Made by a program: the position numbers and the translations under genes. Below the pieces are notes generated by a model. That model was not told the origin of the DNA, did not search any database, and saw only the letters and a list, made by a program, of their open reading frames with translations. From the IMG/VR virus record IMGVR_UViG_2974620381_000001, positions 48,928-112,927 of that record: a stretch of 64,000 nt of DNA, one strand, 5' to 3'. The first letter of the stretch is position 1. Every line of letters begins with the position of its first letter. Shown piece by piece: positions 30,580 through 49,374 of the stretch. Origin of the DNA: a virus (lineage: Duplodnaviria > Heunggongvirae > Uroviricota > Caudoviricetes > Demerecviridae).

Positions 30580-30587
30580 AAATTTAT

Positions 30588-30616
30588 TTGCTAAATGCTT
30601 ATAAATTCTGTATAAT
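30588..30616 (+). promoter_or_regulatory. T5-type promoter driving non-coding leader and tRNA cluster
   Basis: TTGCTA-17-TATAAT. Confidence 0.6.
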
Positions 30617-30622
30617 ATATTC

Positions 30623-30850
30623 ATAAATTAGAGAACAGCGAGCCGATTACGCTGAACTTGTCTTAATGTAAGATGCGTCGAGCACTAAGATTCGTTGAAT
30701 AGAGTCGGTGGGTTAGTTGTAAAACTAGTACACAGGGGGCGGCAATCCCGGTTAGTGGCTAGAACGTGTAAAATGAGGCGTCTGAAACCTCTCCCCTAAA
30801 CTCTTCTCTAATTTATAAATAGTGGGGTGTGGAAATCACTTATGTAGTAA
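30623..30850 (+). ncRNA. promoter-driven untranslated leader / candidate small RNA preceding the tRNA cluster
   Basis: Strong T5-type promoter 30588-30616 followed by ~230 nt without credible ORF (longest 9 codons). Confidence 0.35.
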
Positions 30851-30854
30851 CACT

Positions 30855-30926
30855 GCCGTCCTAGTATAATTGGTATTATCAAGCCGTAACTGGTGGAAGA
30901 TGTAGGTTCGAATCCTACGGTCGGTA
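30855..30926 (+). tRNA. tRNA-like element; canonical T-arm, anticodon arm not resolvable
   Basis: T-arm GTAGG-TTCGAAT-CCTAC at 30902-30918; acceptor GCCGTCC/GGTCGGT with one U-U mismatch; no encoded CCA. Confidence 0.3.
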
Positions 30927-31428
30927 AGAACTGGATAACTGATGCTTTTAACGTAAAAGCTTCCGAGGTTAGTTGCGCACTGCCTAAACCACGCGGTAGT
31001 TGGTTCCAGACTAACCAACCAGTCTGCTGAATAGTTTTATTACGATTTAACTATGTCCAGACTAAAGAAGAACTTTAGAAGGTATTCTAGGATAGTGAAG
31101 TTCTTTCTCCATATCGGAGTAGTTTTTCAGGCTATCCATAAAGTGGGAAATGCTGACATGAGAGATGTCACTAATGGTGCACAATAGCACAGGTAATTCG
31201 CGATAACTCCTGTTGAGTAGCAGCAAAAGGCGGGAAGTCATGACCCCAAGCCTAACCGAGTCCTCAATATACCGCAGGACATAACCACTAAGTCACCCTG
31301 ACTTAAACTGGAAAATAATAGACGTTACTGTATTTTGTCTTGAAATACTTAATGAGTGAGACTTATGACTCTCCCGGTATCGTCTGTATTTTTAAGAGTT
31401 TTTACGAGAGTTCTTAAAAATACTTAAA

Positions 31429-31537: not shown

Positions 31538-32485
31538 ATGTTTGCTACTAAAAATATGAAAGAACTGACTTCTGAGCAGAAAGTAATTCGTACTATTAAA
31601 CGTTGGGGTATTGGTGCTGTAGTTGGTTTAGCAGGTTTAATCCTAGCTCTTAATTCATATACTATTGTTTCTGATGGTACGGTTAAAACCCAAACATTCC
31701 TGGGTAAAGTAGACCCTAATCCAGTATTGCCGGGTTTCCATCTTGTAAACCCGTTTGCATCTTTCGATACTTTTAGTACAAAAGATATTGCTGTAAAATT
31801 AGATAAACTTCAGGTTCCTAGTCAGGATAAATTTAAATCCACTGTTGACCTGACTGTTATGTTGCAGTTTGATGGTTCTAAGGCACCAATTAACCGTATT
31901 AACGCAGGTACTCAGGATCAGGCGCTAGACAAGTATGTAACTGAAAAATTACTGTCTACTATTCGTGAGTTTGGTAAGTCTGTACCTAAAGCACAAGATT
32001 TGTTTGATGCTAAAATTCAGGCTCAATTGCAAACTGCAATTCAACAGGAAGTTGAAGAGTATGCACGCCCATATGGTTATACAGTTAAGCAGGTATTCCT
32101 TCAGGATATTACTTTGCCACCAGTAATCATGGAACAGGTACAGAATACCAAAGTTCGTGAAGAGCAAGTTAATGCTGCGAAAGCTGAACTGGTTCGTGTT
32201 GAACAAGAAGCACAGCAGAAGGTTAAACAAGCAGAAGCAGATCGCGAAGCTCGTAATAACCAAGCTATTGCTAACGAACGTGACGCAGATGCTAAACTAT
32301 ATGCAGCTAAGAAAGAAGCTGAAGCTAACGCCGCATTGCAACGTACCATTACTCCTGAGATGATTCGCTGGAAGCAACTGGAAGTTGAAATGATTCGTGC
32401 TCAGAAATACCAAGGTGGTGTACCTCAAACTGTGGTTGGTACTGGCTACGATGGCCAAATGATCATGGATATGCGTAATAAATAA
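31538..32485 (+). CDS. SPFH/band-7 (prohibitin/HflC-like) membrane protein
   Basis: 315 aa; N-terminal TM helix, SPFH domain, long E/Q/A-rich coiled coil; tandem terminators 32508-32545 and 32562-32600. Confidence 0.65.
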   Translation: MFATKNMKELTSEQKVIRTIKRWGIGAVVGLAGLILALNSYTIVSDGTVKTQTFLGKVDPNPVLPGFHLVNPFASFDTFSTKDIAVKLDKLQVPSQDKFKSTVDLTVMLQFDGSKAPINRINAGTQDQALDKYVTEKLLSTIREFGKSVPKAQDLFDAKIQAQLQTAIQQEVEEYARPYGYTVKQVFLQDITLPPVIMEQVQNTKVREEQVNAAKAELVRVEQEAQQKVKQAEADREARNNQAIANERDADAKLYAAKKEAEANAALQRTITPEMIRWKQLEVEMIRAQKYQGGVPQTVVGTGYDGQMIMDMRNK

Positions 32486-32507
32486 TATCCGTACGTAACA
32501 TCTGAAG

Positions 32508-32600
32508 TAAGCCCTGCGTTCCCTGGAGAGCGCAGGGCTTTTCTGTATTTAAGATAAAAGAAAAGCCCCTAAGTCTTTCGACTAGGGGCTTTATTGTTTG
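32508..32600. terminator. two tandem hairpin terminators between convergent SPFH and Q-rich genes (second one bidirectional)
   Basis: GCCCTGCG...CGCAGGGC+TTTTCTG and GCCCCTAG...CTAGGGGC flanked by T-runs on both strands. Confidence 0.6.
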
Positions 32601-32809
32601 GTTCCTTAGAACCATATACTCTTGTTACAGCAACCACCCATACGGGAGGCCAATCTTGACTGAAAATCTACTCTAGGGGGCAGGATAAGAGTAGGCTTAA
32701 AGGCAAACGGATTGAACGCCGGTATTTGCGTAAACATTGCTGGAGAGCAACAACGTGCTACAGGCATTGGGCAGCACGAAACAGATTTTCTGCAACACAT
32801 AATTTCTCC

Positions 32810-33238
32810 TTAGGAGTTATTACCACCATTTTGAGCTTTTGCAACTTGGCTTTGGCAGAAGCTATTAAACTTACCCATAAGTGATACAAGCTGTTTCCCA
32901 TCCTCTGTCTTTGCGAAGTCTTCGAAAAGGGCTAGTACTGCCTGTCCTTCCGCAGAAACCTGCGGTTGTTGGGTTTGCTGCTGAACTTGCTGCTGAACTT
33001 GCTGCTGCGGCATCTGTTGCTGCATTTGTTGAGGCATTTGCGACTGCCCGCTCATTTGCTGCACCATTTGCATAGGACTCACACTCCCAGGGTTTTGCTG
33101 GAGTTGTTGCTGCATCTGTTGCGCTTCTGCTAAACGCTGTTGCAATTGTTGTAGGTAGGGGTTATCCAGACCAGGCATGGGCTGCTGGGAGCCCATGCTT
33201 TGATTAAGTCCGTTATTTACAAAACCATATTTACTCAT
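32810..33238 (-). CDS. Gln-rich low-complexity protein
   Basis: 142 aa; >35% Q; GGGGAGGA SD right after upstream stop; GC-richer codon usage than flanks. Confidence 0.5.
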   Translation of the reverse strand: MSKYGFVNNGLNQSMGSQQPMPGLDNPYLQQLQQRLAEAQQMQQQLQQNPGSVSPMQMVQQMSGQSQMPQQMQQQMPQQQVQQQVQQQTQQPQVSAEGQAVLALFEDFAKTEDGKQLVSLMGKFNSFCQSQVAKAQNGGNNS

Positions 33239-33259
33239 AATGGGCTCCTCCCCTTAATA

Positions 33260-34255
33260 TTAAGCCGGCAGTTTAGCCTGCAGACCAGCCAGAGTCTGAG
33301 TGATAGCACCAAGACTTACAGCGATTTGATTAATTACCTGACCGTTAGCACCGTTACCCGCAGCGATTGCTTCACGTAGACGACATGCATCTAACTCATC
33401 CTGAATACGAGCAGTAGTTACACCAGCGATCGCAGTCTGAAGTTCACAGCAACATTCAGCGATCTGACGTTCCAGAGAGTTCTGGTTAGCACACATCTGA
33501 GCCTGAACAGCGGCAAACTGATTATTAGTTTGTAAAGTCTGCTGGAAAGCGATCTGTGCAGAATCAAACTTATCTTGTGCACGAGCTATCTGATTAGCTG
33601 CGAAAGATTGATCAATCTGGCGAGAAAGATCGAACTGACCCTGAATAACATTGCGAGTTTCCTGGCAGATCTGATTAGACAGATTAGCACCTGTACCATA
33701 GATCGTAGTTAGTACAGACTGAGTATCACGGCTCTGGTTTTGGGATGTCTGGCTAAAACCATTGTTAACTGCGCTTAAAACAGCTCCAGTACCCTGGTTA
33801 GCTTCTGTACGAGTAGTGTTAATAGCTGCTAGAATACTAGCGGTATCTTGGTTCTGAAGTACTGCATCAACTGCGGTACCATCACCAACTACACCACGTC
33901 CACCGAATCCACCGAATCCACCGAATCCGCCTGTTAGTAGAGCACCGATTAGGATAGCTCCGAATAGTCCCATACCTTCACCACCGAAAGCACCTGCGTT
34001 TGCTGGGTAACCACCCAGTAGGCCAGGGAAGCCACTAGTGAATACGTTTACTGGTTCTTGCATTTTATGTTTTCCATATTTATGACAATGTTCATCATCA
34101 TCTTCTTCTTCATCATCGTGTTCACGATGTTTCTCTTCGTAGGCTCTGACCTTCTCCCACTTTTTCTTATCTGATTCCTCGTGACGGTGCAGTTCTGCTG
34201 CAACGCTAGCGACGGTCTCAGGACTCTTAGCTACTTCTTCTGTCATTTTTGACAC
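33260..34255 (-). CDS. low-complexity protein: acidic/His N-terminus, Gly-rich hydrophobic segment (GGFGGFGGFGG), Q/N/T-rich C-terminal region
   Basis: 331 aa; own sigma70-like promoter TTGACA-17-TAAAGT on minus strand (34308-34336), AGGAGGTG SD. Confidence 0.55.
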   Translation of the reverse strand: MSKMTEEVAKSPETVASVAAELHRHEESDKKKWEKVRAYEEKHREHDDEEEDDDEHCHKYGKHKMQEPVNVFTSGFPGLLGGYPANAGAFGGEGMGLFGAILIGALLTGGFGGFGGFGGRGVVGDGTAVDAVLQNQDTASILAAINTTRTEANQGTGAVLSAVNNGFSQTSQNQSRDTQSVLTTIYGTGANLSNQICQETRNVIQGQFDLSRQIDQSFAANQIARAQDKFDSAQIAFQQTLQTNNQFAAVQAQMCANQNSLERQIAECCCELQTAIAGVTTARIQDELDACRLREAIAAGNGANGQVINQIAVSLGAITQTLAGLQAKLPA

Positions 34256-34307
34256 CTCCTAGTATGTAGAAAATGTGTGTCTCTTTGATCACTCATCCAT
34301 AACATAT

Positions 34308-34336
34308 ACTTTATACTACTCCAGCGAAAATGTCAA
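34308..34336 (-). promoter_or_regulatory. sigma70-like promoter TTGACA-17-TAAAGT for the 331-aa low-complexity protein gene
   Basis: Hexamers on minus strand; differs from the T5 early-promoter style used elsewhere. Confidence 0.5.
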
Positions 34337-34452
34337 GGGGTCTTTAAAAATTGCCCCCGGATTTTTAGTGGGGTCACAAATTTTGGTCCTCACCACTTAT
34401 CTGCTACCCTTAAGCGCCCTATGATTTTCCTCTAAAAAGTTAAAAAATTTGA

Positions 34453-48622: not shown

Positions 48623-49374
48623 TGTCAGTATTAGTCGGTTTACATGGTGAAGCTGGTTCGGGAAAAGATACCGTTGCAAAATTAATTATCGATTGGTGTA
48701 ATGACACGTATCCAACGTGTTTATCCAGTCGTTATAGTTTTGCTAAGCCCGTTTATGAACTTGCATCCGTAATCCTCGGTGTAACTCCAGAGTTTCTAGG
48801 AGAGCGCAGAGGAAAAGAGATTGACCAATGGTTTACGGTCACACAATCTCAATTGGAGCGAGCCAGAGATGTGTGGTTTAAGTACGGTATCGATAAGTTT
48901 GAAGACTTCTCGTACGTTTGGCCTATTTTTGAGGAAAAATATCTTAATCCTCAACAACTTATCTCAGAGAATAAAGAAGACGGACTTTATAGTTTATTTA
49001 TTTCTCCGAGAAAAATGTTACAGCTCGTAGGGACAGAGCTAGGAAGGCAGCTGGTGCATGAACGCATTTGGCTCATAATTCTGGAGCAATCCATCGCTAA
49101 AGACGACCCAGATGTCGCCGTAATAACAGATGTTAGATTCCCCAATGAAGGAGAGTTACTCAGAGAAACAAATCATTTAGATATGGATTCTTTGATAGTA
49201 AATGTAGTACCCGCTGAGCAGAAGTTCACTATTAAATCAGATCATCCATCTGAAAGTGGTATTCCTGCAAAATATATTACTCACGAATTAGTTAATAAAT
49301 TCGATGGTATCAATAACCTTAAACTAGAAGTTTATAACTTCTGTGACTTAGAGCTAGAACCACTAGTTGGATAA
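48622..49374 (+). CDS. deoxynucleoside monophosphate kinase
   Basis: 250 aa; N-terminal P-loop GLHGEAGSGKDT like T4 gp1 dNMP kinase. Confidence 0.6.
   Translation: MSVLVGLHGEAGSGKDTVAKLIIDWCNDTYPTCLSSRYSFAKPVYELASVILGVTPEFLGERRGKEIDQWFTVTQSQLERARDVWFKYGIDKFEDFSYVWPIFEEKYLNPQQLISENKEDGLYSLFISPRKMLQLVGTELGRQLVHERIWLIILEQSIAKDDPDVAVITDVRFPNEGELLRETNHLDMDSLIVNVVPAEQKFTIKSDHPSESGIPAKYITHELVNKFDGINNLKLEVYNFCDLELEPLVG

Follow-up and report, generated by a model that had tools for sequence, protein, structure and literature searches.

We analysed a 64,000-nucleotide stretch (the window; positions 48,928 to 112,927 of IMG/VR virus record IMGVR_UViG_2974620381_000001) from a phage of the family Demerecviridae, in which a plus-strand SPFH/band-7 gene faces a group of minus-strand genes. 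An earlier reading of the same DNA (the original prediction) had described two minus-strand open reading frames (ORFs) convergent with the SPFH gene, and both were present, at 32810-33238 (142 amino acids, aa) and 33260-34255. Its description of them as a two-gene operon was right in that both ORFs are real and wrong in the gene count, a third gene being found at 32606-32800 (-). We refer to the three minus-strand genes, in the order of their transcription, as A, B and C and to the whole as the cassette. Apart from genes A and B, no credible ORF of at least 90 aa was found on the minus strand from 17.9 to 62 kb of the window; this stretch is otherwise plus-strand. Strand orientation was considered as a clue to early or late expression and discarded as uninformative, since the window holds early-region genes only.

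Over its 3.1 kb, the region matches the T5-like phage NBSal005 at 100% identity and many Tequintavirus genomes at 96-97%. It matched 451 phage records, with the whole region covered in 217 of them. Phage T5 (AY543070) carries the same block, annotated in the order T5.080 (the SPFH gene), a terminator, an unnamed 64-aa coding sequence, T5.078 and T5.077 (genes B and A) and 'promoter P12'. These genes have been on record for about two decades with no function attached; T5 is a classic model phage, yet its cassette, T5.077-T5.079, is without an assigned function. The literature that we searched contained no mention of T5.076-T5.080, T5p075-T5p078 or phrog_8119, the protein cluster of gene A, and searches on T5 together with SPFH, on the CCC motif described below and on the T5 transcriptome yielded no title of apparent relevance.

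A host-style sigma-70 promoter, as originally proposed, was located in front of gene A (TTGACA-17-TAAAGT, 34336-34308 on the minus strand), with 10 of 12 positions matching the consensus and the whole lying inside the annotated P12 of T5. At the other end, the position of the cassette terminator corresponds to that annotated in T5 as an 'efficient bidirectional rho-independent terminator'. As judged from these signals in the sequence, the cassette is a self-standing transcription unit, bounded by a promoter and a terminator that belong to it. T5 transcription depends on host RNA polymerase and many sigma-70-type promoters are annotated in the T5 record, so the promoter is no sign of foreign origin. 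The promoter and leader showed 93% column identity among the window, T5 and the Epseptimavirus Sw2, the leader being nearly invariant. Over 34247-34430 (-), the promoter, the 62-nucleotide (nt) leader and about 90 nt upstream, at 93% column identity between two genera, were more conserved than the coding sequence that they drive. A short GC-rich repeat resembling a hairpin, GACCCC...CGGGGG, with AATTTTT behind it, lies immediately ahead of the -35 element.

GC content across the operon is 0.45-0.49, compared with about 0.39, and in the comparison with the window it was 0.46-0.47 as opposed to 0.39. The GC-richer codon usage previously ascribed to both genes was found for gene B, whose GC content at third codon positions (GC3) is 0.47, and not for gene A, where GC3 is 0.32, equal to the window mean (0.320, standard deviation 0.051, 56 ORFs). 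The extra GC of gene A falls in codon positions 1 and 2 and thus reflects its amino acid composition (Ala/Gly/Gln/Glu).

Table 1. Features of the locus, in window coordinates
Feature	Position	Strand	Basis
Cassette promoter and 5' leader	34247-34336	-	-35 TTGACA 34336-34331, -10 TAAAGT 34313-34308, Shine-Dalgarno AGGAGG 34260-34255
Gene A, 328 aa, T5.077 equivalent	33260-34246	-	PHROG 8119, alignments, AlphaFold2
Gene B, 142-aa soluble partner (predicted), T5.078 equivalent	32810-33238	-	Alignments
Gene C, 64-aa cysteine-pair micropeptide	32606-32800	-	GGAG ribosome-binding site, T5 AAS77125, 8/8 lineages
Cassette intrinsic terminator	32549-32592	-	Bulged hairpin 32592-32562 then UUUUCUUUUAUCUU; -20.2 kcal/mol, z -4.3
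Stretch missing from operon-less T5-like phages (DT571/2, EPS7)	32635-34422		blastn-short, annotated loci
SPFH/band-7 protein, 315 aa, T5.080 equivalent	31538-32485	+	Pfam Band_7 domain
SPFH intrinsic terminator	32509-32550	+	12-13-bp GC-rich hairpin then UUUUCUGUAUUU; -25.9 kcal/mol, z -4.8

Genes of the cassette

The product of gene A had been given as 331 aa. The ORF 33260-34255 exists, but both its start and its length needed correction: we assign the start to ATG 34246 (328 aa) because the AGGAGG Shine-Dalgarno sequence stands 8 nt upstream of it, the GTG at 34255 overlaps this sequence, and that GTG is out of frame in T5 owing to an extra A. The low-complexity parts described for the protein were all present, namely a head rich in acidic residues and His, the segment GMGLFGAILIGALLTGGFGGFGGFGG and a tail rich in A/Q/T/N. 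From the N-terminus, a helix containing ELHRHEESDKK (family form ELxRHEExDKK) is followed by a variable acidic/His-rich spacer, the motif EPVNVFT and a Gly-rich hydrophobic segment (residues 91-116; mean Kyte-Doolittle value about 1.7, calculated by hand from the sequence) with an Arg directly behind it. The C-terminal part of about 200 aa is helical and holds a family-invariant cysteine triplet, CCC, at residues 265-267. Structure prediction with AlphaFold2 (predicted local distance difference test score, pLDDT, 63.9) gave three helices, 12-45 (pLDDT >90), 125-169 and 175-325. The hydrophobic periodicity of this stalk peaked at about 3.7 and 4.7 residues, values that carry no significance test and were not used.

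Gene A was found in 223 phage records, and its product is a full-length member of phrog_8119 (E 6e-204), a cluster of 'unknown function'. Conservation is concentrated on the helices and the Cys motifs and not on the low-complexity parts. By codon comparison, genes A and B are under purifying selection, with ratios of nonsynonymous to synonymous substitution (omega) of 0.08-0.16 and 0.10-0.20, respectively. Profile searches with A and B against PDB sequences gave nothing below E 0.8, and none of A, B and C matched Pfam or NCBIfam; among the PHROGs, matches were confined to families of 'unknown function'. PADLOC models matched none of the four proteins (SPFH, A, B, C).

Gene B encodes a protein that was originally described as more than one-third glutamine. 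The actual content is 41 of 142 residues (28.9%), rising to 51% in residues 29-93. A helix at the N-terminus, PYLQQLQQRLAEAQ, is joined by a variable Q/P/M-rich linker to a C-terminal domain, EGQAVLALFEEFAKTEDGKQLVS.MGKFNSFCQS, whose Cys is invariant; the conserved parts are the helix and this almost invariant 40-aa domain ending in KFNSFCQS. The Q-rich stretch is a linker of variable length and is lineage-specific, being Pro-rich ('NPGPPPE'), short or nearly absent in homologs. Prion-like Q/N-richness was therefore not retained as a functional feature, since the linker is not conserved among gene B homologs. Pfam gave only two sub-threshold matches, to unrelated families; they fall for the most part within the Q-rich stretch. 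The label 'cAMP-dependent protein kinase catalytic subunit' was rejected for this protein of only 142 aa, in which no kinase domain was found with Pfam or NCBIfam. The same label recurs in JLBYU40, ESCO40, EH3 and other phages. A 140-aa protein encoded downstream at locus L013, with a Q-rich stretch and '...TQEGK...', was considered as a diverged gene B homolog and rejected (hhalign probability 0.09).

Gene C starts 9 nt past the gene B stop codon, with its GGAG ribosome-binding site 5 nt before the ATG, and ends 14 nt ahead of the minus-strand hairpin and U-run. The product, MCCRKSVSCCPMPVARCCSPAMFTQIPAFNPFAFKPTLILPPRVDFQSRLASRMGGCCNKSIWF (in outline MCCRKSVSCCPMPVARCCSP...FNPFAF...GGCCNKSIWF), is identical to T5 AAS77125. 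It contains 8 Cys arranged as four CC pairs, is rich in Pro and Phe and has nearly no acidic residues. In tblastn searches it matched 222 phage records, and most matches had no annotated feature beneath them, the micropeptide having been missed by most annotators of these records. ORFs of the same type, with 49-91 codons, a Met-Cys(-Cys) start and further CC pairs, follow or overlap gene B in all eight lineages considered: L006 and L007 (distant Demerecviridae-like contigs), L008 and L016 (Pseudomonas phage KPP23/RSP), L025 and L027 (lambdoid), L028, and L026 (N4-like). Each homolog has 2-5 CC pairs, and protein motifs are shared: CCPMPV(A/P)RCC in T5 and L027, FNPF, and GCC at the C-terminus. 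Synonymous variation (TGT/TGC) was seen at the Cys codons. At L016 5983-6177 (KPP23 ORF072, VLQSAGSAML...), the annotated frame is wrong and the conserved reading is an overlapping MCCNQPVPQCC... ORF, as at L008 7419-7601.

Distribution of the cassette and of the CCC family

Phages DT571/2 and EPS7 are without the cassette, and their SPFH gene is followed directly by a Toprim gene or NadR. Both retain several stretches of the locus in their original order, the first corresponding to window positions 32471-32541 in DT571/2 and 32411-32574 in EPS7. A further remnant, 32586-32634, which holds the last 29 nt of the gene C ORF, was clearly matched in DT571/2, and 14-16 nt from inside the gene C ORF (32746-32761) persist in both phages. 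In both, the sequence resumes at 34423-34425, just upstream of the promoter. The same internal remnant and the same resume point in a Tequintavirus and an Epseptimavirus imply that the cassette was lost by deletion and not recently gained. On this sequence evidence, about half of T5-like phages are without the cassette through a shared, scarred deletion.

Related cassettes were found in N4-like, lambdoid and KPP23-like phages, mostly opposite in orientation to their neighbours. At loci L006-L008, L016 and L025-L028, A, B and C travel together without SPFH, and no Band_7 gene was found within 3-6 kb of the distant cassette copies. The SPFH protein, in turn, occurs in 723 phage records, including operon-less T5-like and T4-like phages. 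As each occurs without the other, the SPFH gene and the cassette are independent neighbours and not one island, and the inclusion of SPFH in an island, as first suggested, was dropped. The proposal of a horizontally acquired moron held in part: the cassette is autonomous, variably present and found in unrelated phage types, whereas recent acquisition is not supported, given the typical GC3 of gene A and the deletion derivatives. Its variable presence and its versions in unrelated phage types make it, on long timescales, mobile and moron-like. A prophage cargo was also considered and rejected, since two scans of species-representative bacterial genomes gave no relative of A or B.

Morons such as lambda bor/lom and HK97 gp15 are independently transcribed accessory cassettes. 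The cassette resembles them in several ways: it has a predicted promoter and terminator of its own, is flanked by backbone genes that run the other way, occupies or is missing from one and the same site in closely related genomes, and codes for a predicted membrane protein. It differs in residing in virulent phages, in a third-position composition of gene A that is not foreign, in a polymorphism that arose by deletion with no visible insertion, and in having three genes, none of them homologous to a known moron product.

Prion-like Q/N- and G-rich proteins had been called unusual in phages, which does not agree with the roughly 190 relatives of gene A that were detectable in phage contigs; A belongs to a large, phage-specific family. 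An exhaustive profile search gave 104 proteins at E <1e-3; a broader profile, in a second search, gave 113. Among the remote members, CCC was present in 152 of 186 and the Gly-rich segment in 100 of 186, and in an alignment of 82 sequences the three CCC cysteines were the only invariant columns. The triplet stands in the context ...NALxxQ(I/L)A-(E/D)CCC-E(L/I)K... in a long helix, usually behind the Gly-rich hydrophobic segment, and A of the window fits this pattern. Some members are without the hydrophobic segment and, by inspection, without a signal peptide. In many of the remote A-like proteins the C-terminus is formed by a fused Pro/aromatic/Cys tail (...PAYVV.SPY...GCGCGCN) with a composition like that of the gene C product. 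In P0284, P0290, P0300, P0305, P0307, P0308 and others, two CCC motifs are found exactly 29 residues apart, which suggests an internal helical repeat unit of 29 residues.

The invariant CCC links roughly 190 unannotated phage proteins from T5-like, T1-like, Queuovirinae, N4-like and lambdoid phages and gut-phage contigs. The family bridges phrog_8119, phrog_9288 and phrog_16490, all of 'unknown function'; these are unannotated clusters and not characterised families. The phrog_9288 branch was represented in 132 records of cultured phages (Drexlerviridae, Queuovirinae, Yersinia PY100-like phages, eiAU). In this branch (eiAU, STP-SP5, phiWae15, KarlJaspers, PJ16) the CCC gene is followed not by genes B and C but by a similar three-gene run, typed phrog_9157-8329-7239 in eiAU and STP-SP5, and at the five loci inspected it usually lies just after tail genes. 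In gut-metagenome phage contigs the CCC gene is found inside head or tail modules.

The small phrog_9157 proteins (L015 5541-5906, L017 3710-4075, L018 4349-4627) are encoded by the gene after the CCC gene in the eiAU/Seuratvirus/phiWae15 branch. Judging by its residue pattern (...EMEYxEL...ELxDLAAAC...), their C-terminal half looks like a MazG-type all-alpha nucleoside triphosphate pyrophosphatase, and the copies of eiAU and STP-SP5 have a His-rich N-terminus. Another small Cys/Pro/Phe-rich ORF (MCGNACC...) was noted at L017 4905-5114. A DUF7841 protein (L013 8854-9318, L019 10013-10399) is encoded two or four genes downstream of the CCC gene in two unrelated metagenomic contigs, a recurrence that hints at a conserved neighbourhood in that branch.

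Proposed role and competing explanations

Our preferred reading, held tentatively and somewhat short of an even call, is that the minus-strand genes form a self-contained, dispensable three-gene accessory unit (about 32549-34336) beside an independent SPFH gene, and that their products make up a thiol-bearing membrane complex with an accessory role. The anatomy and evolution of the cassette are the well-supported part of this reading, and the mechanism is inferred. Host RNA polymerase would transcribe the cassette soon after DNA entry. The Gly-rich segment would anchor A in the inner membrane, its helical stalk of 150-200 residues would mediate oligomerisation, and B would dock on A by means of its N-terminal helix and conserved C-terminal domain. 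The CCC of A, the invariant Cys of B and the CC pairs of C could then assemble a shared metal-thiolate or disulfide-linked complex, most likely at the cytoplasmic face of the membrane. The cytoplasmic face is favoured by the lack of evident export signals in B, C and the soluble relatives, by the Arg directly behind the hydrophobic segment and by the Cys theme common to all three proteins. The role would be a host- or competitor-dependent membrane function and not one in core replication or assembly. By analogy, superinfection exclusion or envelope protection is the leading candidate, with low confidence.

In a bolder form, which we consider unlikely, A, B and C would constitute a previously unrecognised phage membrane complex in which a Cys-triplet stalk, a partner and a micropeptide hold a metal-thiolate or redox cluster, the MCC peptides or fused tails serving as an exchangeable business end in phage-phage or phage-host conflict. 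Vicinal cysteines bind soft metals in ArsD and in the MerT/MerA tails, and adjacent Cys pairs and the triplet are likewise the most conserved elements of C and A. This likeness is a lead only, as the cassette has no sequence or fold similarity to these proteins and no metal-resistance gene context. Should the thiol clusters bind metal or form a redox-linked assembly, they would represent a new biochemical theme in phage accessory genes; should the cassette instead encode a factor of an ordinary kind, for exclusion or assembly, a function would still be assigned to three PHROGs that have none. The cassette is now testable as a three-gene unit with clear bounds, a natural deletion allele as control and a sharp CCC signature.

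Several points weigh against the preferred reading. We infer a physical interaction of A, B and C from synteny only, and exclusion or envelope protection is a guess by analogy. An N-in/C-out topology of A would place a helix of about 22 nm, together with its cysteines, in the periplasm. In remote branches, the A-like gene shares its strand with the morphogenesis module that contains it and has other neighbours, which fits a virion or assembly role better than membrane defence. In the gene C ORF, synonymous divergence (dS) between genera is 0-0.2, compared with 0.5-1.2 in flanking genes, and the sense strand folds at -60.4 kcal/mol (z -2.35; antisense z -0.02), so part of the conservation of gene C may act at the RNA level.

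The location of the remote members suggests a virion or assembly role as the main rival to one in membrane conflict: the CCC protein would be a late fibrous protein (for instance a coiled-coil fibre, a protein for ejection or membrane piercing, or a chaperone of assembly) forming disulfide-stapled oligomers outside the cell, with the T5 copy relocated. Remote members lie, on the same strand, between portal/minor-capsid and scaffold/capsid genes (L021, L022), among tail-fibre genes (L019) or right after tail or lateral-tail-fibre genes (eiAU, STP-SP5, KarlJaspers); the predicted helix is very long, and one annotator labels a member 'lateral tail fiber chaperone'. However, the T5-like, N4-like and lambdoid cassettes stand outside structural modules in the opposite orientation, those of T5-like phages have a consensus -35/-10 host-type promoter and are dispensable in half of these phages, and the T5 locus tags of the cassette genes went without mention in the literature searched. 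Morons encoding membrane proteins also sit inside tail modules, as HK97 gp15 does, so location alone is weak evidence, and we regard a virion role as rather doubtful. We consider it quite improbable that the cassette is a periplasm-spanning, spanin-like or other lysis or envelope device, with A as a type II inner-membrane protein with interchain disulfides and C as its Rz1-like partner. Rz and Rz1 are two-component spanins, the small partner being an outer-membrane lipoprotein. A resembles Rz in its hydrophobic anchor and Cys-bearing coiled coil, as does its Pro/Cys-rich partner of 49-91 aa the small spanin, and a 150-residue helix at 1.5 Å per residue would measure about 22 nm, similar to the width of the periplasm. 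The cassette also abuts holin-lysozyme-Rz genes in the lambdoid contigs L025 and L027, but both contigs code for Phage_lysis (Rz-type) proteins already, and their lysis genes are oriented divergently from the cassette. The small peptide starts with MCC... and has neither a signal peptide nor the lipobox of an Rz1-type lipoprotein, B has no signal peptide either, and the Arg behind the hydrophobic segment speaks for a C-in topology. The family includes soluble members, and family contigs with an XkdW-like or SPP1-type portal gene suggest Gram-positive hosts, for which spanins are unneeded. Moreover, the cassette has an extra middle gene and lies outside the lysis operon, and no sequence similarity to Rz/Rz1 was found.

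Gene C raises a separate question, as it could be a structured 3' untranslated region, a stable RNA or a DNA-level signal, with an incidental ORF. Its DNA is far more conserved than its neighbours and its sense strand folds unusually well, as given above; the variable sites are distributed 5/8/11 over the codon positions, a weak third-position bias, and T5 is annotated with stable RNAs of unknown function in this region. A purely RNA or DNA role is nonetheless improbable given that an ATG-Cys(-Cys) ORF follows gene B in 8/8 lineages whose A proteins are 36-45% identical to A of the window, with synonymous variation of Cys codons alongside the shared motifs CCPMPV.RCC, FNPF and GCC, and that gene C has its own ribosome-binding site. 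The predicted folds of the ORF in distant lineages are weak and dissimilar (z -1.9, -1.8 and +0.7), and Rfam gave no match to the gene C region. The two explanations could hold together, and nucleotide-level constraint probably coexists with coding. The original prediction itself, in which SPFH and two low-complexity proteins form one horizontally acquired island of prion-like or condensate factors, possibly acting with SPFH and FtsH, appears very improbable. It had in its favour the convergent arrangement, the cassette's own promoter, higher GC and variable presence, the 51% Gln of the B linker and the Gly/Phe-rich segment of A. It is largely refuted already as to linkage and the conservation of Q-richness: SPFH and the cassette have separate distributions, the linkers of homologs are Pro-rich or short, gene A has the GC3 of the genome mean, and operon-less phages are deletion derivatives. 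The prion or condensate idea is unsupported because the low-complexity parts are the least conserved, conservation falling instead on the helices and Cys motifs.

The SPFH neighbour and other features

The 315-aa ORF was confirmed as an SPFH protein by a Pfam Band_7 domain (PF01145, residues 52-224, E 1.7e-16, 61.2 bits against a cut-off of 23.6). Its closest solved relatives among PDB sequences were QmcA (8z5g, 1.1e-6) and then prohibitin-2 (1e-4). A hydrophobic stretch WGIGAVVGLAGLILALNSY at residues 23-41, read from the sequence, fits an N-terminal membrane anchor, and the C-terminal region is rich in Ala/Gln/Glu/Lys. In AY543070, T5.080 is annotated as a 'conserved hypothetical' protein with a single transmembrane domain. 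The protein shares the Band_7 domain, the N-terminal hydrophobic anchor and a charged helical C-terminal region with QmcA and HflK/HflC of E. coli and with prohibitins. It differs from this family in being phage-encoded and without an NfeD-type partner gene, and it is only distantly related to QmcA (E 1e-6). It is an ordinary addition to a known family. The likeness to HflK/C, QmcA and prohibitins makes an oligomeric membrane scaffold its probable form, and an association with FtsH is plausible by the same analogy.

The label 'lipoprotein', found in many records and in phrog_200, is impossible for this protein because it contains no cysteine and hence no lipobox Cys. Recurring misannotations are thus corrected on both sides of the locus ('lipoprotein' here and 'cAMP-dependent protein kinase catalytic subunit' for gene B). 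Omega of the SPFH gene was 0.02-0.08. Over residues 39-313, the protein has 80-83% amino acid identity to those of T4-like Klebsiella, Enterobacter, Cronobacter and Citrobacter phages, and identity to Aeromonas phages is 64%. The 80-83% identity between T5-like and T4-like phages implies that the gene has passed between unrelated families of virulent phages. The N-terminal anchor of the protein differs between the two groups. The SPFH gene is part of the stable backbone of T5-like phages and a neighbour of the cassette, not a component of it.

Two further observations concern the surrounding RNA and DNA features. A major single-strand interruption (nick) of T5 is annotated next to its terminators, with a GCGC-containing consensus, and the equivalent GCGC lies at window positions 32527-32530, inside the SPFH terminator hairpin (32509-32540). 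Upstream of the SPFH gene, at 30855-30926 (+), a tRNA-like element absent from the ARAGORN output scored 35.5 bits with the Rfam tRNA model (gathering score 29). This element is within the equivalent of the T5 'rnaX' stable RNA of unknown function (about 30580-31428, just upstream of tRNA-Arg).

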